Shown piece by piece: positions 3,327 through 40,035 of a stretch of 53,708 nt of DNA. The position numbers were made by a program, and so were the translations under genes. The stretch is from Candidatus Microgenomates bacterium (lineage in GTDB: Bacteria > Patescibacteriota > Microgenomatia > UBA1400 > UBA12108). The stretch lies in contig QEVC01000004.1 of NCBI GenBank assembly GCA_003576945.1, forward strand, positions 1 to 53,708. Direction: 5' to 3'. The notes under the pieces were generated by a model, which did no database searches, was not told the DNA's origin, and saw only the letters and a list, made by a program, of their open reading frames with translations. Every line of letters begins with the position of its first letter. Position 1 is the stretch's first letter.

Positions 3327-4927
3327 AAATATCCTAGCGTTAAAACCGATAACAGTGAGACTGTATTACTTAGTAATTCAACTGGAGTACTACTCATTTT
3401 AATTTTGTAATTGTGAACGCCTAGCTCCGGCTTGAGCATAATCATACCATCCTCAGTTGGCTGAATCTCGATCTGCTTGGAATTATCTATTGTGACACGC
3501 CAGCCAGGATAATAATTACGAAGAATTGTGACCCTACCCTCACTACTATCAGGCTTATTGTTGATGGTAACATTAATTTTGAGCGGGTCATGGGAGAGTG
3601 CGTCGATCGTCATATTACCAGAATTAACGAGTAACTCGTCATTTTTGTAGCGTTCATGCGGGACACTCCATTTGGGCAATATTTCGGTGCGAAAAGTTGT
3701 ACTAGTTTTGTTGTAGTACAAACGATAGAGGTCTGTATACTCTTTGTTGTCGAGAAATTGTTGTGGGTTACGATAGTTACGAATATTGATGAAGGCTAGA
3801 ACCACAAAAAACAGCATGAGCAGGTAGCGGAATTTTTTTGATTGGAATGAGAGGAGTGCCTGACTCGCAAGTAGTGGAGTCAAGATAAGGGGCATGAAAA
3901 GAAACCGCCAAGGAAACTGGACGGATTGAAGAAGTGGCAAGCTATCCCAGATGAAATAACTCTTGGTGTGCATAAGAAAAATAGTGCCGAGGTAGGCTAG
4001 TATTAAATATAGATTGGAAAGCGTCGGAAATTTCCAAATAATTGCTAAAATTCCTAAGAGCGCCAGAGATAGCTGTGCTAACCCCAGCTGAAAGGACATC
4101 CCATCGTTGTCACCTGGCAAGGAATACCAGTAATCCCATTTACTATATAAAAGTTGCTTGAGGGCTATGAAATGTTGATCAAAGCGAAAAGTTAAATCCT
4201 TATATGCGAAAGAATAGAGTAAATTCTTTTGGGTGATCATCGGGATGATAAAGAACGCACCAATGCCAAATGAGATTAAGAGACTAGCGAGTGCGCGCTT
4301 GAGTGATGTTTTATTGGTTATCATGTATCCAAACATAAAGGCAGCAAAAAGAATACCTAGGAAGTTGTGAGCAAGTAAGACACCAGCGAGCGGGAGGGGG
4401 TGATACCACCTTAGTTTAGTATTATTTTTCTTTAAGTTCTGATAGCTATACAAGACCCATGGCATGAGACCAATGGCGAGAGTCTCACCAAGCGTACCAC
4501 GCACAAAAATGTTTAAAAATTGATAAGGAGTTAAGAGAAAGATGAGCGCGCCAAAAAGACCAAAGCTTCGCCCACGAGATGACAGTAGTAGATACATCCC
4601 GAGCCCTCCAAAAAGATAAGAGGCGATGGTAACTGCCTTGAGGGACCACATAGTGCCTATTACCACTGAAAGAAGGGAGCTTAGATAATAAGGTAGAGGG
4701 TAAACAAAGCTAAAGAGTGGGATACCAAAGCCTTGGTCAAAATTACCGGCCCAGCGGAGCGGGAAATGGCCGAGCTTGAGCATCGAAAGCGCCTCTTCGG
4801 TACGATAGATGTGAAAGATACCATCATGGGAGAGATACCAACCTGGTCTTAACAGGCTGGAGGCTAAAAATAAACCAACAACTAAGACAATAAGCTGGCA
4901 AGAATACTTTCTCAACCAAGTCTTCAT
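3278..4927 (-). CDS. PTPS-related/YfhO-like GT-C membrane protein
   Basis: HDGIFH, GFGIPLFSFVYPLPYY, VRGTLGE and QFPWRFL motifs. Start moved to ATG 4927. Confidence 0.75.
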   Translation of the reverse strand: MKTWLRKYSCQLIVLVVGLFLASSLLRPGWYLSHDGIFHIYRTEEALSMLKLGHFPLRWAGNFDQGFGIPLFSFVYPLPYYLSSLLSVVIGTMWSLKAVTIASYLFGGLGMYLLLSSRGRSFGLFGALIFLLTPYQFLNIFVRGTLGETLAIGLMPWVLYSYQNLKKNNTKLRWYHPLPLAGVLLAHNFLGILFAAFMFGYMITNKTSLKRALASLLISFGIGAFFIIPMITQKNLLYSFAYKDLTFRFDQHFIALKQLLYSKWDYWYSLPGDNDGMSFQLGLAQLSLALLGILAIIWKFPTLSNLYLILAYLGTIFLMHTKSYFIWDSLPLLQSVQFPWRFLFMPLILTPLLASQALLSFQSKKFRYLLMLFFVVLAFINIRNYRNPQQFLDNKEYTDLYRLYYNKTSTTFRTEILPKWSVPHERYKNDELLVNSGNMTIDALSHDPLKINVTINNKPDSSEGRVTILRNYYPGWRVTIDNSKQIEIQPTEDGMIMLKPELGVHNYKIKMSSTPVELLSNTVSLLSVLTLGYLWYTNKKNASSKAKSK

Positions 4928-34233: not shown

Positions 34234-34341
34234 ACTCCGATTATGATAGCACCCGAGGCTGTTATTGGCTACGCTTGCCGAAAGCAAATTTCTGTTGATC
34301 CCTATATCGCCTAACGTATGGTGTGTATGCGAGGTTTTGCT

Positions 34342-34560
34342 TTAAATTTTGAGAAATTCCTCGACTGTCATCTCACATTGTCTGAGAATTGCGCGTAAGG
34401 CACCTTTCGGGATATCTCGGCTATGCAAAGCTACCGTAGACGCACGACCATCCGGATGAATAAGTCTAGCGTGACTACCAGTTTGCCGTGAAATCTTAAA
34501 TCCAGCTTTTTCTAACTTCTTGACTACTGCCAGTGGTTTGAGAACTGGGAGTTTGGGCAT
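34342..34560 (-). CDS. hicA: HicA-family toxin (mRNA interferase)
   Basis: LEKAGF..RQTGSH...H..DIPKGALRAILRQ; 72 aa. Confidence 0.9.
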   Translation of the reverse strand: MPKLPVLKPLAVVKKLEKAGFKISRQTGSHARLIHPDGRASTVALHSRDIPKGALRAILRQCEMTVEEFLKI

Positions 34561-34561
34561 A

Positions 34562-34849
34562 CTAAACGGCAAATCTGGTATAGGGAGTAACCTGGAAAGG
34601 TACCTGGGTATTAGTCACCAATTCTTCGTTAGGCTTATCAACGGGAATTTCTTTATGTTCTTTTTGCAAACACTCGACATGAAAGGCGATAGTGCTCTGG
34701 ATATTATCGAGTGCTTCTTGAGGGGTAGGCCCATCGTCGACCACACCTAGAGTGGGACAATATGCAACATAGCACGCTTTTTTGCTACCCAGGCTTTTAT
34801 CAAGGCGTAATATTACACGATAGTCGAGAACGGTCTTTTGTTGTTTCAT
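34562..34849 (-). CDS. hicB: HicB-family antitoxin (short form)
   Basis: YVAYCPTLGVVDDGPTPQEALDNIQSTI...EIP. Start moved to ATG 34849, behind extended -10 TGCTATACT. Confidence 0.85.
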   Translation of the reverse strand: MKQQKTVLDYRVILRLDKSLGSKKACYVAYCPTLGVVDDGPTPQEALDNIQSTIAFHVECLQKEHKEIPVDKPNEELVTNTQVPFQVTPYTRFAV

Positions 34850-35029
34850 AGTACTTGGAGTATAGCAAAAATCGGGAAAATATAAAGGCAAATTGTGGGC
34901 GAACGACTGCAAGGAGTGGAGCCGCATACACGCTAGTTAGGTGACCCGAGCGGAATGTGGCAAAATGCTCCCCTGCCACACGAAGTGAGAGTGCAACGGG
35001 GTGCGAGTGAAACGAGCAAGTTACAAACT

Positions 35030-35488
35030 TTACGATCTATTTATTAGCTCGGACAATGGCGGAACGCCATAGTCCTTTCGTTCTTGGTCTGATGTTTTGG
35101 GATCGTAGTCGCAGATTATTCCTGTGGCATTATTAAATTGGGTTCCGAATTTCTGTTTTTTACCTTGAGATACGAGCCACCTATCCAGACTGGCGGCATA
35201 CAACCACTTCGTTACGTTGGAACCCAATTTAATTGCCTTTTGAGCGTACTCATGCGCCAGTTTGTATGTGGCGGGAACATCAGACCATGAATGCATGAGC
35301 AATAAACAGGCATAATGACAATTCCATATTTCATTTTCATCTAGTGTTGGAAGAATTGTATTTAACACCTCTTGCCGATGAATATCGTTTTGTTTGAGTT
35401 GATCCTCGGATAATTTGCCTTCGTCAAATAGCTGACGATCACTTTTATCACTTAAATACAATTCTTCCAACTGTAAATGGATTGTCAT
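35030..35488 (-). CDS. Hypothetical helical protein (DUF6624-like C-terminal motif), cassette gene
   Basis: 152-aa ORF with LYAASLDRWLVSQGKKQKFGTQF...ERKDYGVPPL; family recalled, not verified. Confidence 0.6.
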   Translation of the reverse strand: MTIHLQLEELYLSDKSDRQLFDEGKLSEDQLKQNDIHRQEVLNTILPTLDENEIWNCHYACLLLMHSWSDVPATYKLAHEYAQKAIKLGSNVTKWLYAASLDRWLVSQGKKQKFGTQFNNATGIICDYDPKTSDQERKDYGVPPLSELINRS

Positions 35489-35510
35489 TATGAGTAAATT
35501 TTGTAATTAC

Positions 35511-35627
35511 GTCTAACGTATGGTGTGTATCTGATGTTTGGCGGACTTATAATGGATTATACTCACAAATCCGCCTGATATGGGAGAACGAGTGCAACGA
35601 AGTGAACCAGATACACGCTAGTTCTAC
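35511..35627 (-). repeat. attC-like site (117 bp, no gene in loop)
   Basis: GTCTAAC-gta-TGGTGTGTATCTG ... CAGATACACGCTA-GTTCTAC; inner GGCGGA/TCCGCC stem. Confidence 0.75.
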
Positions 35628-35722
35628 GACCCGAATGGAGCGAAGTATAATCTGAAAGCTCTTAATACTCCGCGGAATGAGAGTGCAACGCGATCGAGGA
35701 GCGTAGCGACGAAGACGTAATG

Positions 35723-35935
35723 CTACTCTGAGGAAGAACCTTCTTCATGCTCTAGCCAAGGGCCATCTACAATTATCTTGCGAAGGATCCTCATTTTATC
35801 TACGGAGAGTCTTTCTAACTGTTTCAGTTGAGATTTAAACTCCTCGTTAGTCGCTTCACCTTGGTATCTAACATAATCCTGAGCAAGTCTTCCCTCCTTG
35901 GCTAGAGACTCAGCTATGTCCATTAAGTTTGCCAT
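35723..35935 (-). CDS. Small hypothetical helical protein, cassette gene
   Basis: 70-aa ORF with upstream AAAGGAG; fills the space between two sites. Confidence 0.7.
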   Translation of the reverse strand: MANLMDIAESLAKEGRLAQDYVRYQGEATNEEFKSQLKQLERLSVDKMRILRKIIVDGPWLEHEEGSSSE

Positions 35936-35967
35936 ATTTCTTACTCCTTTCTGAGTAGCATTATGTC

Positions 35968-36409
35968 GCCTAACGTACAGCGTGTATGCGAGGTTATTAA
36001 GTTTTTGATACCTCCTCTAATATTTGCCTAAGTTTTCTAGATTCTTTCATGGCCTCCTCCACTTTTTCTTGAGTTATGGATTTGCTAAGCAGGATTGGAA
36101 TAATGCGAGACTGGTGAGCGATGAAACTATCGAGAGGCATAAGGGCACCGCCATGTTTTGACCAAGCCTCCTTTGCACCCTCCCAATTTTTGATTGAGGC
36201 ATCGATCACCAAAGTCTCTCGCAACTTCTTAAATTCATAATGCTTAGAAATCCATACCGTGATAATTGAGGCCATGAAACCTATGAGCGAACCTCCCAAT
36301 CCTGCGATTAATGTAGTAAGCTCTGGTGTCATGATGATAATTGTATCAAAAACTAAATAATCTGGGCGAACGACTGCAAGGAGTGGAGCCGCATACACGC
36401 TAGTTAGAT
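35968..36409 (-). repeat. Expanded attC-like site (442 bp) enclosing a 111-aa ORF
   Basis: GCCTAAC-gta-CAGCGTGTATGCG (35968-35990) pairs with CGCATACACGCTA-GTTAGAT (36390-36409). Confidence 0.7.
35997..36332 (-). CDS. Hypothetical protein with N-terminal TM helix
   Basis: MTPELTTLIAGLGGSLIGFMASIITVWI. Start moved to ATG 36332, 7 nt after extended -10 TGATACAAT. Confidence 0.7.
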   Translation of the reverse strand: MTPELTTLIAGLGGSLIGFMASIITVWISKHYEFKKLRETLVIDASIKNWEGAKEAWSKHGGALMPLDSFIAHQSRIIPILLSKSITQEKVEEAMKESRKLRQILEEVSKT

Positions 36410-36507
36410 GACCTGAGCGCGAGGTGATATGATCCCCCGATCACCTCGAGCGAGAGTGCAACGCGGTGCGGAGTGAAACGGAGCAAGTTAGCAACTCTCA
36501 CTAAAAA

Positions 36508-36852
36508 TTAGTTAATCTTTTCGAAGCCGTTGAAGTGAGGCTTATCGTCGTTGAATACTTCTATAACTTTATATCTTCCTTTTGTCCAGACCTCGCCAGC
36601 TTCTAGATAGTGAGTAGCGTCGAGGATGATAATACTAGCTTTGGGACGGGATAAAACTTGATTGCCTTGTGTCTCTAGGAGCGGAAGTTCGCCGTGCAAC
36701 CAATACAACCTCTGATCTTTTTTGAGAAAGGAATAGGTTTGGCCAACCTCTAACTTTTCGGGGATACATTCCTCTATTTTTCGGTTGCCGGCATGAAATT
36801 CCGCGACATTGCGTAAAGCGAGGTCTGGATTGTATTCAACGACGATACCCAT
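36508..36852 (-). CDS. Hypothetical protein, cassette gene
   Basis: 114-aa ORF; TATAAT just upstream; enclosed by a perfect 14-bp inverted repeat. Confidence 0.75.
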   Translation of the reverse strand: MGIVVEYNPDLALRNVAEFHAGNRKIEECIPEKLEVGQTYSFLKKDQRLYWLHGELPLLETQGNQVLSRPKASIIILDATHYLEAGEVWTKGRYKVIEVFNDDKPHFNGFEKIN

Positions 36853-36898
36853 ATATGTTGATTATAACCCTTCCTTGATTGTGAGAGTTGCTAATTTC

Positions 36899-37018
36899 AT
36901 CTAACGGGCACTGTATATCTGACGTTGGACGGGTTGATAATTGAGTTTATTGTACCCTAACCCGTCCAATGTGGGTCGAAGGAGTGCAACGACTGAGCCA
37001 GATATACAGTAGTTGTAC
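36899..37018 (-). repeat. attC-like site (120 bp, no gene in loop)
   Basis: ATCTAAC-ggg-CACTGTATATCTG ... CAGATATACAGTA-GTTGTAC; inner 14-bp stem at 36922-36935/36959-36972. Confidence 0.75.
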
Positions 37019-37248
37019 GACCCGAAGCCCACACGCTAAAATCACTCAACTTAAAGCGGGTGGGCTGAGAGTGCAACGAGGTCGAACGACTGCAAGGAGT
37101 GAGATGTCTATTTGTTCCTTAATTCAGTTCGCGCGCGCTTTTACATGTACCCTGTATTCATTTTCAGCTCAGTGTAGAGGGGTTAGGGGTGAATACACTG
37201 AGCTGAATGCTCCCCTAGTCTCCAACTCTGGTGGATATGTCCTATAAC

Positions 37249-37277
37249 TTGACAAAAAGCTATATATCTGGTATGCT
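37249..37277 (+). promoter_or_regulatory. Sigma70 promoter TTGACA-17-TATGCT with extended TG
   Basis: Consensus -35 and 17-bp spacer; both boxes are conserved in copy 2 while the spacer varies. Confidence 0.8.
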
Positions 37278-37284
37278 ACCAAAT

Positions 37285-37475
37285 GTTGTAGTAGTCTGCC
37301 ATGCTGCAAATAGATTGCTATTTCCCAGCGTGAATGAACCAACTATAACTGCACCTTAAAATGCGGAAGTTATCTCCTTTGCCAAGTGGGTAATTTTGTG
37401 GATATTGTCGTGTCTACAAAAATACCCATTTGGGTAGAAAAACGTTTTTCTATTCTGTTCTACAAAAGGAGATAT
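37285..37475 (+). ncRNA. Putative structured leader RNA, copy 1
   Basis: Nested stems GTTGTAGT/ACTATAAC, CATGCTG/CAGCGTG and AAATAG/CTATTT; long hairpin 37382-37433; anti-SD TATCTCCTTT. Confidence 0.55.
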
Positions 37476-37478
37476 ACC

Positions 37479-38063
37479 ATGTTCAAGAAAGCCCCCCGTA
37501 AGGAAGATGGATTGGATCTGTTTGCTCGCGCACTCGGAGCCAAATCCGGATCGGACGCCATTCTCAGACAAGAAGCTGACGGTCAACGCTCGTTCGTAGG
37601 TAGCGACACGCTCCCAACCGAAATGAGTGCTGATGATCGCACTGCTCTCGAAGCCGCAGGCGTTGTGTTCGGCGAAGTTGTGCCAGGCGATGACTTGTTC
37701 CAGTATGTTCAGCTCCCCGCTGGATGGACCAAGCGTAGCACGAGCCACTCGATGCACAATGACCTTCTCGATGAGAAAGGTCGCAAGCGTGCAGGCATTT
37801 TCTACAAAGCCGCGTTCTACGACCGCAACGCTCACCTCTACTGTGTGCGCCGCTTCGGCATCAACCTGGACTATGACCAGCTCGAGAATGGGATTGTGCT
37901 TGTGCAGGTGACTGACTGCGATGAAGTGGTTTACTCCACTAATCCTGTTCCGTTCGAAAAGAGCGAAGAGCGCCTTGCACGTGAACAGGCATTCGAAGTC
38001 GCCAAGTCCTGGCTGAACAGCAACTATCCCGAATGGGAAAACGCCGCCGCCTACTGGGACTAA
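37479..38063 (+). CDS. Hypothetical, probably phage-type protein (cargo 1, 194 aa)
   Basis: Strong SD AAAAGGAG. LPAGW...HSMH..LLDEKGRKRAGIFYKAAFYDR is recalled from phage hypothetical proteins (unverified). GC is higher than in the flanks. Confidence 0.75.
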   Translation: MFKKAPRKEDGLDLFARALGAKSGSDAILRQEADGQRSFVGSDTLPTEMSADDRTALEAAGVVFGEVVPGDDLFQYVQLPAGWTKRSTSHSMHNDLLDEKGRKRAGIFYKAAFYDRNAHLYCVRRFGINLDYDQLENGIVLVQVTDCDEVVYSTNPVPFEKSEERLAREQAFEVAKSWLNSNYPEWENAAAYWD

Positions 38064-38095
38064 TTCCTCACCTTCCGCAAGGTGCAAAACGCTCG

Positions 38096-38148
38096 ACCCC
38101 TCCGGTCACGTCCACGTAAGTGGAAAGATTGGAGGGGTGTTTTGTATC
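38096..38148 (+). terminator. Terminator-like hairpin, copy 1
   Basis: ACCCCTCC...GGAGGGGT followed by GTTTTGTAT. Confidence 0.55.
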
Positions 38149-38352
38149 TATTAACTTTCGCTATACAAAGTGGCAATTTTAGCGCTTTAATTAACAAAAG
38201 TCGCCGTAGGCGACACCTCATCCCCCTCTAAAAATAATATACCTTTACATGTACTCTGTATTCCATTTCAGCTCAGTGTAGAGGGGTTAGGGGTGAATAC
38301 ACTGAGCTGAATGCTACCCATACCATCACCTCTGGTGGATATGTCCTATAAC

Positions 38353-38381
38353 TTGACAAATGACTACATATCTGGTATGCT
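38353..38381 (+). promoter_or_regulatory. Sigma70 promoter TTGACA-17-TATGCT
   Basis: Same as 37249-37277, offset by 1104 bp. Confidence 0.8.
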
Positions 38382-38388
38382 ACGAGAT

Positions 38389-38570
38389 GTTGTAGTAGTC
38401 TGCCATGCTGCAAATAGTTTGCTATTTCCCAGCGTGAAAGAACCCACTATAACTGCACATTAAAATGCGGAAGTTATCTCCTTCTATTGTGGGTAGCACT
38501 TTTGGTATCAAAAGTGGTACTAAGTGTGCTACTCACAAGTAGTGAAACCCCAACCCACCCAAAAGGAGTA
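38389..38570 (+). ncRNA. Putative structured leader RNA, copy 2
   Basis: Same stems as copy 1; a hairpin of different sequence at the equivalent place (38487-38538); CTCCTT anti-SD. Confidence 0.55.
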
Positions 38571-38577
38571 CTGAAAA

Positions 38578-38886
38578 ATGAACGATAAAGTTATTACCCT
38601 CCCGAGCGCTGATGAAATGATTGCTCGCCTGATGAAAGTTCAGGATGATGAACTCGCCCAGTCACTGTACAGGAACGTTGCGCAGCGTGCTGGCGAGGAG
38701 AAGGTTGCGGCTGGCATCATTATGATGTTCAGTCTTGGCATCTACGATGTCTGCCAGGGATACCCTCCCATGATGCAGAACCTTCTCTCCTACAACATCC
38801 CCGCGTGGGTCGACGCCCTTGTTGATGACAAGGAAGTTGCCGATGCGGCTAAGGCTTTCTGGAAGGAAGCTACGAGCAAGAAATAA
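38578..38886 (+). CDS. Hypothetical protein (cargo 2, 102 aa)
   Basis: SD AAAAGGAG at 38561-38568; no similarity to cargo 1. Confidence 0.75.
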   Translation: MNDKVITLPSADEMIARLMKVQDDELAQSLYRNVAQRAGEEKVAAGIIMMFSLGIYDVCQGYPPMMQNLLSYNIPAWVDALVDDKEVADAAKAFWKEATSKK

Positions 38887-38984
38887 GTCTTCGCGAGGTC
38901 AAATATTGAAACCACTAGCTGGGCGACGTAAGTCGACGGGTTACTCCGTTATCAGTTATACTTCCGCAAAAGAAGTGCAGACAT

Positions 38985-39054
38985 CCCCTCCGAATAGTCG
39001 GAAATTGTTGCGTAAGTTGCAACGTTTTTGATTATAGGAGGGGTGTTTTGTATC
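38985..39054 (+). terminator. Terminator-like hairpin, copy 2
   Basis: CCCCTCC...GGAGGGG followed by TGTTTTGTATC. Confidence 0.55.
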
Positions 39055-39168
39055 ACTTTAGTTAATGAAAGTCGCCGTAGGCGACACCTCATCCCCCTCT
39101 AAAAATAATATACCTTTACATGTAATGTAAAAGCGCGCGCGAACATATAAATAGTACAAATAGATATC

Positions 39169-39207
39169 GTACAACTAGTGTGTATGCGAATAATGTTCGC
39201 ATACACA
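39169..39207 (-). other. attI-like recombination site
   Basis: Core GTTGTAC on - strand, next to a perfect 12-bp hairpin TGTGTATGCGAA-taatg-TTCGCATACACA, 21 bp upstream of the integrase start. Confidence 0.65.
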
Positions 39208-39228
39208 GACATTTGGTAGAATATTAGC

Positions 39229-40035
39229 ATGTGGAAAGAACGATTACAACTATATATGCAGGCTCGTGCATACAGCAGACGAACCATATCTGCGTATATT
39301 GATTCTGTCGATCGGATAGTCAAGAAAACGAGAAAAGATCCAGCTAATATAGATGAGCAAACGCTAGAAAAATACCTGAGCCAACTATACAGCTCTGGCA
39401 TGTCGCCCTATACCCTCAACCAGCACCACATGGCGTTAAAATTACTTAAGACTGCGGTACTTGGTCAGTCGTGGGACCCTAAGTTTGGCTATGCCAAAAG
39501 ACCAAAGAAAATCCCCGTTACACTAACTAAGAATGAGATCTCAAAATTAATAGATTCGACTGCTAATCCAAAACATCAGTTAATACTGGCTCTCGCATAT
39601 GGCGCAGGCCTACGGGTCAGCGAAATAATCGCCCTTAAAGTAATGGATATCGATTTTGAGAACATGCGGGTTGTAGTACGGAGTGGCAAAGGACAAAAAG
39701 ATCGAACGACAGTCCTCCCTGATAAGTTAGTCACCACTCTCAATTCGTATCTCGCAGGACGCAAAAAAGACGACCATGTCTTTTTGAGTGAGCGAGGTGG
39801 GACACTAACTACCAGGACGCTACAAGCGATATTTGCTAAATCGCTAAATCGTGCCGCGATTAATAAGGCCGCCACCTTTCACAGTCTCAGACACAGTTTT
39901 GCCACTCACCTCCTTGAGCAGGGTGTAGATATTAGGTATATCCAGACACTGCTCGGCCATGCTAGTATTACGACAACTCAGATTTATACTCATGTTGCGA
40001 GTACTGCACTACATAATATCAGGAGCCCATTATGA
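39229..40035 (+). CDS. IntI-like tyrosine recombinase (268 aa) lacking the integron-specific insert
   Basis: YGAGLRVSE (R), GKGQKDR (K), HSLRHSFATHLLE (HxxR), LLGH, TTQIYTHV (Y); C-terminal RSPL as in IntI. Confidence 0.9.
   Translation: MWKERLQLYMQARAYSRRTISAYIDSVDRIVKKTRKDPANIDEQTLEKYLSQLYSSGMSPYTLNQHHMALKLLKTAVLGQSWDPKFGYAKRPKKIPVTLTKNEISKLIDSTANPKHQLILALAYGAGLRVSEIIALKVMDIDFENMRVVVRSGKGQKDRTTVLPDKLVTTLNSYLAGRKKDDHVFLSERGGTLTTRTLQAIFAKSLNRAAINKAATFHSLRHSFATHLLEQGVDIRYIQTLLGHASITTTQIYTHVASTALHNIRSPL

Follow-up and report, generated by a model that had tools for sequence, protein, structure and literature searches.

A gene-cassette array that resembles an integron lies beside a short tyrosine recombinase in a tiny-genome (CPR) bacterium of the Microgenomates type. 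The recombinase resembles an integron integrase but lacks the extra domain thought essential for integrons, so that the locus may show how integrons work, or began, without that domain. The array was examined in a window of 53,708 nt, the whole stretch of contig QEVC01000004.1 that was analysed (positions 1 to 53,708, forward strand). Literature searches found no description of this system.

The recombinase is encoded at 39229-40035 on the plus strand (268 aa) and matches PF00589 (4.5e-45) and PF13495. It possesses the full catalytic set, R129, K154, H218, R221, H244, and Y253, but lacks the approximately 42-aa insert specific to IntI. In the alignments, 15 aa stand where VchIntIA has 58, IntI1 needs 299 aa to span 254 residues of the query, and the segment from KDR to HSLRH is 64 aa, compared to 106 in IntI1 and 78 in the XerC/D-like protein of the same genome. 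The best curated model was NF040815 (recomb_XerA_Arch), at 225.7 bits against a cut-off of 220, whereas the integron-integrase model TIGR02249 was matched in two stretches at 215.3 bits, below its cut-off of 265; IntegronFinder and its intI_Cterm model were not run. NCBI's own name for NF040815 is "site-specific tyrosine recombinase/integron integrase". Against PDB sequences, the scores were 146.7 bits for XerA, 145.6 for IntI4, and 90.8 for XerD.

In a tree of 27 rows built by a quick method, IntI1, the CPR clade (support 100), and other short recombinases shared a group (SH-aLRT 96) apart from the XerC/D-like protein of this genome, whereas relations inside that group were unresolved. The tree holds a single IntI, because a plasmid search listed only IntI1, and a search of the class around genome G151, a small-genome group, gave 0 of 301 at E 1e-70 with no signal in the controls either and is uninformative. 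A search for related loci with the integrase returned 63 loci, 62 of them relatives at 34-76% identity over the best segment (full-length matches 35-42%), from Bacteroidota, Spirochaetota, DPANN archaea, and other groups; these were not examined for arrays.

The recombinase gene is divergent from an array with four AAC...GTT palindromes. A script scan found pairs of AAC, 3 nt, and a 12-13-nt arm, followed by the arm and GTT, at 34313/34936, 35515/35621, 35972/36403, and 36903/37012, each with at most 1 mismatch and at most 2 G-T wobbles. Only two of the four are compact hairpins of about 120 nt: g-h (36896-37020; AAC 36903, GTT 37012; 109 nt from AAC to GTT; z -5.0; 100.8 bits with the covariance model), which belongs to cassette 1, and c-d (35508-35629; AAC 35515, GTT 35621; 106 nt; 107.4 bits). 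The other two have the same ends but span 431 and 623 nt and hold genes in their apex. The long site e-f (35972-36405; a weak covariance-model hit at 36303-36411) has a 112-aa ORF (35997-36335, minus strand) flanked by a 21-nt inverted repeat in place of the apical hairpin. The long site a-b (34313-34938), the last of the array and next to ugd, encloses hicA (34342-34572; HicA, 3.8e-18) and a hicB-like gene (34562-34852; 8.6e-5), both on the minus strand.

The observation made in the first-pass annotation is confirmed: the 268-aa recombinase, the four palindromes, and the exact matches of cassettes 1 and 2 to their own inverse cores are all in the sequence. These matches, GTTAGATGA...TCATCTAAC (36403/36903) and GTTGTACGA...TCGTACAAC (37012/39173), are complementary at 6 of 6 positions beyond the triplet, whereas cassettes 3 and 4 do not match (3 of 6 each). 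Its statement that the arms pair fully apart from one bulge is only roughly right, since the 13-bp stem is followed by further stems, a one-sided bulge of about 26 nt, and an apical hairpin, and it did not mention that two of the palindromes carry genes inside.

An attI-like site lies at 39167-39207, 22 nt before the integrase start codon. It consists of a cassette-derived TCGTAC, then AAC (39173-39175), TAG, and a perfect 12-5-12 palindrome with arms at 39179-39190 and 39196-39207 (z -4.5). A homologous site lies directly upstream of the integrase on the same contig in the window and 8 other genomes, 9 in all. The exact 37-nt attI stretch had 0 matches in the metagenome contigs searched. The left flank of the site differs between the genome of the window (G000) and a congeneric genome (G004), and matches the far end of cassette 1 in each.

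After each GTT, a structured module of about 90 nt, M2 (+M1), follows at 37012-37106, with other copies at 34936-35030, 35621-35715, and 36403-36497; it reads GACC, a hairpin with TAAAAT and GAGAGTGCAACG, and GGTC. The motifs are not chance: GAGAGTGCAACG occurs 4 times exactly here, against 0.13 expected, and all module motifs occur only at this locus in the 825-kb genome. RNAalifold gave no consensus for M2. With a structure drawn by eye, 68.4% of cells pair compared to 48.6% in shuffles, which is suggestive only, because the structure was derived from these same sequences. Rfam gave no family at gathering thresholds over the window, and only one chance-level miRNA hit over the array at E up to 1.

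The body of cassette 1 (37015-39172) has 44-nt terminal inverted repeats (37103-37146/39125-39168) and two tandem units, each with a promoter-like site, a leader hairpin, and a plus-strand orphan ORF (37479-38063, 194 aa; 38578-38886, 102 aa). The remaining cassette genes are on the minus strand. Cassette 2 (36508-36852) encodes a 114-aa orphan flanked by a 17-nt inverted repeat, with a 93% identical copy in another genus; cassette 3 (35723-35935) encodes a 70-aa orphan flanked by an 18-nt inverted repeat; and cassette 4 (35030-35488) encodes 152 aa with a weak DUF6624 match below cut-off. PHROGs and PADLOC gave nothing beyond the HicB-like match for the 7 window cassette ORFs scanned. The cargo is typical of cassettes: HicAB, NUDIX, GNAT, cupin, isochorismatase, methyltransferase, and many orphans.

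The hairpin stems covary. In 15 hairpins from 9 genomes, 95.2% of cells pair and 12 of 22 pairs show compensatory changes, which was reached by 0 of 500 shuffles, and slid registers gave at most 1. In 66 hits of the covariance model, 92.8% pair and 14 of 22 pairs are compensatory. The genomes compared are relatives, so these counts overstate independence. The sites are also strongly conserved in sequence, longer, and carry extra modules, and the canonical attC covariance model was not applied; whether they are conserved as an attC is, in structure rather than in sequence, is therefore left undecided. A 3-nt excess on the AAC side was found in all four window sites and was seen by eye in the 15 aligned sites, and the pair tables contain 23 G-T cells against 5 A-C cells, which favours the plus strand. 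The function of this asymmetry was not examined, and these observations do not settle whether it marks a recombined strand. The covariance model (R1) hit 32 of 151 genomes of the order and 18 of 23 in the family. Of the 19 relatives with the integrase, 16 also have hits, and in 14 of 19 the contig stops within 2 kb upstream of the integrase.

The cassette ends are complementary more often than in all-against-all pairings: 14 of 27 cassettes have 6 of 6 complementary bases and 18 of 27 have at least 5 of 6, against 8.6% and 31% of 2352 all-against-all pairs. Both cassettes nearest the integrase match exactly, in G000 and in G004. One orthologous cassette shows a compensatory change, GTTagTcga/tcgActAAC against GTTagGcga/tcgCctAAC. 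Conversely, 13 of 27 cassettes lack exact end complementarity.

Fixed gene order in related genomes had been named in advance as the result that would count against a cassette system, and the opposite was seen. The syntenic locus of G004 has the same flanks, ugd and trmD (76-80% nucleotide identity; integrase 88% identical), but entirely different cassettes. The same cassettes recur in other genera at other array positions, 83-93% identical, with identity ending at GTT and AAC. In addition, one public metagenome contig (run X16) joins 36902 to 39173, skipping 2270 nt, and thus lacks exactly the hairpin plus cassette 1 (36903-39172) from AAC to AAC. This joint rests on one contig of depth 3 with 27 letters on its shorter side, and could come from a sister strain rather than from an excision event. 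Loose ends in run X19 at 39175 and 36906 run into other hairpin types. The junction expected of a cassette circle, 36904 joined to 35974, had likewise been proposed as evidence to look for; no circle junction was among the joints listed, although only contigs were compared, so that its absence means nothing.

The interpretation in the first-pass annotation, a distinct integron-like cassette system driven by an integrase without the IntI insert, is supported by these comparisons, with the further correction that the hairpin core does not stay linked to its cassette between genomes. Where the same cassette occurs in two genera (genomes G005/G018 and G001/G005), the hairpin cores on both sides differ in type, whereas a canonical attC would travel with its cassette. 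In one case, identity runs only between the inner inverted repeats. Two sites carry genes in their apex and one hairpin is a hybrid of two types, which points to homologous recombination among the conserved modules as a second, perhaps major, route of exchange.

We consider it probable that the locus is a sedentary chromosomal gene-cassette platform that works like an integron, at a fixed place between ugd and trmD. We propose that the recombinase, which is as close to integron integrases as to archaeal XerA, inserts circular cassettes at the attI-like site beside its own gene and excises them again, with strand exchange falling at the conserved AAC (G|TT on the other strand). In this view, each cassette ends in a folded site of about 120 nt, comprising an R box AAC/GTT, a 3-nt asymmetry, a 13-bp L stem, further stems, and an apical hairpin, followed by M2, and in the circular form the two ends of the cassette pair and complete the R box. 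The anatomy, the missing insert, the structural covariation, the complementarity of cassette ends, the cassette turnover between species, and the AAC-to-AAC presence/absence variant were observed. In contrast, it is only inferred that this enzyme is the catalyst, that the site reacts as a folded single strand (the plus strand, i.e., the bottom strand relative to most cassette genes), and that resolution is replicative as in integrons; recombination of attI with these sites was not assayed, and the variant contig is indirect evidence for it. The absence of the I2 helix and the XerA model as the best curated match also count against this reading.

Two alternatives are unlikely but deserve consideration. 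The recombinase could be the XerA-type chromosome-dimer resolvase of the cell and the 12-5-12 palindrome its dif site, the array then being a pile-up of elements that exploit Xer (IMEX-like), or modules flanked by dif-like sites in alternating orientation, which would recombine as duplex DNA, not as an integron. The best NCBIfam and PDB matches are to XerA, the palindrome is perfect and of dif-like size, and AAC-type and GTT-type half-sites alternate along the array; moreover, XerS and XerH have dif next to the xer gene, and the CTX phage uses a folded single strand with Xer. However, the genome has two further tyrosine recombinases, one of them a more XerC/D-like protein of 320 aa, and the palindrome abuts a variable cassette array, so that the enzyme does not appear as a dedicated Xer acting at a single dif site without cargo. 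The DNA immediately left of AAC differs between species and matches the far end of the first cassette, so the crossover lies outside the palindrome, the stem covariation fits structure rather than a fixed protein-binding sequence, and the recombinase family co-occurs with the hairpin family. Alternatively, the cassettes could be exchanged mainly by homologous recombination after DNA uptake, with the hairpin, M1, and M2 modules as homology arms and the recombinase playing little or no part today. This would fit the decay of identity inside the conserved modules, the unlinked hairpin cores, the hybrid hairpin in genome G023, a fusion of M1' to the M2 core in genome G013, and joints inside M2 and between tandem units in runs X19 and X20, but it does not explain the end complementarity in 14 of 27 cassettes, the compensatory change, the exact AAC-to-AAC variant, or the attI-like site conserved beside the intact integrase gene in 9 genomes.

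It is very unlikely that the palindromes are structured intergenic repeats with no role in mobility, such as RNA elements, terminators, or promoters (REP/MITE-like), beside a coincidental recombinase. The sites are unusually conserved in sequence, their loops carry -10-like motifs (AGTATAAT on the minus strand and TAAAAT in M2), and G-T wobbles would also fit an RNA, whereas the motifs are confined to one locus per genome, next to the recombinase, no Rfam family matches, and gene content turns over at AAC/GTT. A shufflon-type inversion switch was rejected, because the genes are complete and free-standing and the GTT-M2...AAC frame keeps one orientation in every hairpin-plus-module copy extracted from the window and relatives, whatever the strand of the gene.

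A further reading, which is possible but tentative, is that a natural integron analogue runs folded-hairpin cassette recombination without the I2 domain, either surviving from the pre-I2 stage of integron evolution or representing an independent solution in CPR bacteria. The near-symmetric site, read by an enzyme with no I2 strand-selection device, may be cut on either strand, which would explain why cassettes are conserved only from GTT to AAC while hairpin cores circulate as separate modules, and how genes come to sit in either loop of the structure.

Integron integrases are held to have become able to recombine folded single-stranded sites by gaining the I2 helix (PMC4792948, PMC7790495), which is held to be needed for reading attC extrahelical bases, and detection tools require that domain (PMC9024848, PMC9668308). 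A working cassette platform without it would make directly testable whether I2 is necessary and what it adds. It would also mean that integron surveys miss a whole class of gene-capture systems in CPR bacteria, whose tiny genomes are thought to have little accessory content, and would offer a compact recombinase and site pair for engineering.

Among known systems, the closest are integrons (general features in PMC4889954 and PMC9024848), especially sedentary chromosomal integrons. The Vibrio superintegron, with its near-identical VCR sites, is an example. Shared with these are a tyrosine recombinase divergent from an array, an attI next to the gene, cassettes ending in imperfect palindromes bounded by RYYYAAC...GTTRRRY-like cores, first bases of each cassette complementary to its own inverse core, sites that are alike within a lineage, a cargo of toxin-antitoxin modules and orphan genes, and assemblies that break at the array. 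In contrast, the present recombinase lacks the IntI additional domain and is below the TIGR02249 cut-off, the sites are larger (about 120 + 90 nt), sequence-conserved, and carry an extra structured module, hairpin cores are not linked to cassettes, genes can sit in the hairpin apex, and some cassettes are on the opposite strand with their own promoter.

In the rAID-1 clusters of Bacteroidales (Ross et al., bioRxiv 10.1101/471110), which are defined by a 5' XerD-like recombinase with at least 2 co-directional downstream genes of low GC, the rAID genes encode immunity proteins. Homologues of the present enzyme at 35-42% identity occur in Bacteroidota; identity to the B. fragilis recombinase, and whether the rAID recombinase is in the same clade, were not examined. 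Here the array is upstream and divergent, the downstream gene is trmD, and no immunity family was found among the 25 cassette ORFs scanned against Pfam. Archaeal XerA/dif and the "Cand" subgroup of simple tyrosine recombinases (Smyshlyaev et al., bioRxiv 10.1101/542381) agree with the present enzyme in length, domain layout, and best HMM. That paper places recombinases from candidate phyla next to Xer and notes that the IntI insert is absent from the closest homologues of IntI. It groups the "Cand" subgroup with putative dimer resolvases and, in the parts consulted, describes no cassette array, whereas the present enzyme sits beside a variable array in a genome with a second Xer-like gene. Finally, experimental work on the I2 helix as the innovation for single-strand recombination (Escudero et al., PMC4792948 and PMC7790495) addresses the same transition, from Xer-like duplex recombination to integron-type hairpin recombination; those studies engineer IntI1, whereas this locus is a natural system that appears to run cassettes without I2.

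The array lies in an 825-kb genome of 98% completeness, and homologues of its recombinase are named from Woesebacteria, Beckwithbacteria and other Microgenomates. The ORF at 39229-40035 (+) encodes 268 aa and carries PF00589 and the SAM_4 N-domain, and the array lies upstream of it and divergent from it. A script scan for AAC, 2-4 nt and a 12-nt arm, followed by the complementary arm and GTT, recovered the four palindromes reported in the first-pass annotation, at 34313/34936, 35515/35621, 35972/36403 and 36903/37012, all with a 3-nt excess on the AAC side. Two of these sites are compact: as single-stranded DNA, the hairpin g-h (36903/37012) folds at z -5.0 and the hairpin c-d (35515/35621) at z -1.3. 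In contrast, the sites at 34313/34936 and 35972/36403 are 623 and 431 nt long and enclose hicA/hicB and a 112-aa ORF, respectively, each flanked by its own inverted repeat. A fifth AAC site (39173) begins an attI-like element 22 nt before the integrase start, which consists of AAC, TAG and then a perfect 12-5-12 palindrome. The exact matches between the two ends of a cassette, which had been claimed for cassettes 1 and 2, are correct for these two cassettes nearest the integrase, whereas the other two cassettes show no such match.

Each GTT is followed by a ~90-nt module (M2, then M1), at 34936-35030, 35621-35715, 36403-36497 and 37012-37106, with the invariant GAGAGTGCAACG, which occurs 4 times here against 0.13 expected. 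All these motifs occur nowhere else in the genome. In M2, an outer stem (GACC/GGTC, switching to GGG/CCC in some relatives) encloses a covarying hairpin with TAAAAT in its loop, followed by GAGAGTGCAACG. A structure drawn for M2 pairs in 68.4% of cells, against 48.6% in shuffles; its function is unknown, and no Rfam family matches. In addition, the apical loops of the compact hairpins (35550-35570 and 36945-36960, and the compact hairpins extracted from relatives) carry a conserved GATTATACT, which reads AGTATAAT on the gene-sense strand, a -10-like motif pointing at the next cassette gene, for which a simple scan found no -35. A further hairpin, with a covarying stem and a conserved purine-rich loop (GAGGGGTTAGGGGTGAA), sits just inside the left inverted repeat of the cassette, whichever strand the cassette gene is on (37163-37207 and 38267-38311, and near 4920, 6085, 7258 and 9120 of L024, the array locus of the relative G004).

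The catalytic residues of the recombinase are complete (R129, K154, H218, R221, H244 and Y253). In the alignment with VchIntIA, residues 7-180 and 196-268 of the recombinase correspond to residues 10-186 and 245-317, so that 15 aa stand where IntI has 58. IntI1 needs 299 aa to span 254 residues of the query, and the spacing from the catalytic K to HxxR is 64 aa, compared to 106 in IntI1 and 78 in the XerC/D-like protein of the same genome. Among the curated models, the recombinase scored 225.7 bits with XerA (cut-off 220), 215.3 bits with the integron integrase TIGR02249 (cut-off 265, in two stretches), 182.9 bits with XerD and 182.3 bits with XerC. Among solved structures, the scores were 146.7 bits for XerA, 145.6 bits for IntI4 and 90.8 bits for XerD. 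The genome has two other tyrosine recombinases, one of them XerC/D-like. An integrase phylogeny had been called for in the first-pass annotation. A quick tree of 27 rows, in which only one IntI was included, placed IntI1, the CPR clade (support 100) and other short recombinases in one group (SH-aLRT 96), apart from the XerC/D-like protein, with nothing resolved inside that group.

Short recombinases that match query residues about 3-268 with no insert, at 35-42% identity, also occur in Bacteroidota, Spirochaetota, DPANN archaea and Clostridium plasmids. The open frames extracted from the chromosomal loci are 273-389 aa; whether any of these recombinases head cassette arrays was not examined. 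One Bacteroidota genome gave 30 matches to TIGR02249, all below its cut-off.

Of 60 relatives, 19 have a homologue of the recombinase at E below 1e-30, and in 14 of these 19 the contig stops within 2 kb upstream of it, which is the usual fate of repeat-rich, variable arrays. Fixed gene order in related genomes had been named beforehand as an outcome that would count against a cassette system, and the reverse was observed in G004, whose integrase is 88% identical. This genome shares the flanks (76% nt identity on the ugd side and 78% on the integrase-trmD side), but every gene between them differs. Its array has five compact hairpins, one truncated site and one collapsed site, with the same M2, M1 and inverted-repeat design. 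In the collapsed site (L024:4353-4370), AAC is followed directly by the last ten bases of an arm and then GTT, between a NUDIX gene and the next cassette.

A covariance model built from 15 hairpins of 9 genomes hit 32 of 151 genomes of the order, including 18 of 23 in the family, all 4 genomes of the genus that were scored and all 11 of a second genus. Of the 19 integrase-bearing relatives, 16 have hits, whereas 8 genomes have hits without a detected integrase. Among the latter is G001, whose 10-hit array runs off a contig start and ends at ugd, and in which an IS3-family transposase pair (rve, HTH_Tnp_1) sits inside the cassette array (locus L126:4413-5508). In the relative G003, a solitary hairpin site (locus L139:3225-3347, contig C14 near 96.2 kb) lies about 95 kb from the integrase of that genome, and the DNA beside it is 85% identical to part of the array region of the relative G002. 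The attI-like site lies directly upstream of the integrase on the same contig in 9 genomes, and its arms covary.

On the 15-row hairpin alignment, 95.2% of cells pair, compared to 82.8% in shuffles, and 12 of 22 pairs show compensatory changes, which were reached by 0 of 500 shuffles, whereas slid registers gave at most 1. On 66 model hits, 92.8% of cells pair and 14 of 22 pairs are compensatory, although that alignment is fitted to the model and the genomes are related. One G-T pair is invariant on the plus strand, and 23 G-T cells against 5 A-C cells were counted in the pair tables of the hairpin alignment. These counts indicate that the plus strand, which is the bottom strand relative to most cassette genes, folds better, as in integrons.

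The six bases after GTT and the six before the next AAC are fully complementary in 14 of 27 cassettes, against 8.6% of 2352 all-against-all pairs. In addition, cassettes are shared between genomes. The 114-aa cassette gene is 93% identical in G013, a genome of a different genus whose integrase is 56% identical. A 1.1-kb cassette is shared by the relatives G005 and G018 at 89%, with identity starting at GTT and ending at AAC. A methyltransferase cassette sits mid-array in G001 but next to attI in G005, and its two ends carry a compensatory change.

In public metagenomes, 20 runs of 9 studies hold at least 81% of the words of the array, and contigs from four of these runs (among them X16, X19 and X20) were compared with it. 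One contig of X16 joins 36902 to 39173, removing exactly the hairpin g-h plus cassette 1; it has a depth of 3, 27 letters on its shorter side and 3 letters (AAC) shared at the joint. The main X16 contig starts exactly at 39173. Loose ends in X19 at 39175 and 36906 continue into other hairpin types. A contig of X20 (depth 16.5) joins the two 1.1-kb tandem units of cassette 1 into one (37182-38288), so the copy number of these units varies in nature.

Overall, the features described in the first-pass annotation are real, and its interpretation of the locus as a distinct, integron-like cassette system is supported by the comparative and population evidence, whereas catalysis by this recombinase and the single-strand mechanism are inferred. 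Several features do not fit a canonical integron. The I2 domain is absent, and the sites are conserved in sequence and carry M2. Hairpin cores differ on both sides of the same cassette in two genus pairs. One hairpin, in the relative G023 (locus L026:322-444), is a hybrid whose AAC-side arm is of the 'GCG' type and whose GTT-side arm is of the 'CTG' type, so that the L stem cannot form, and it looks like a product of exchange between two sites. One copy has lost its L' arm and GTT by fusion of two repeats. Homologous exchange among the modules therefore probably acts alongside site-specific events. Furthermore, cassette 1 in the source genome (G000) and in G004, and about half of the G001 cassettes, carry genes on the other strand. 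In G000, these genes have strong promoter-like sites, the best of the region (TTGACA, 17 nt, TG-extended TATGCT; 10 of 12), which lie one in each of the two tandem units of cassette 1 (37249-37277 and 38353-38381), so these plus-strand orphan genes appear self-promoted.

Ghaly et al. 2022 define IntI by the additional domain and do not mention CPR, and the IntegronFinder 2.0 paper does not mention Patescibacteria. Literature searches, in which supplements were not consulted, found no paper describing integron-like arrays in CPR bacteria. Smyshlyaev et al. name a 'Cand' recombinase subgroup next to Xer and note that the insert of IntI is missing from its closest homologues, and Ross et al. describe rAID-1 arrays, which are headed by a XerD-like recombinase and have integron-like repeats.
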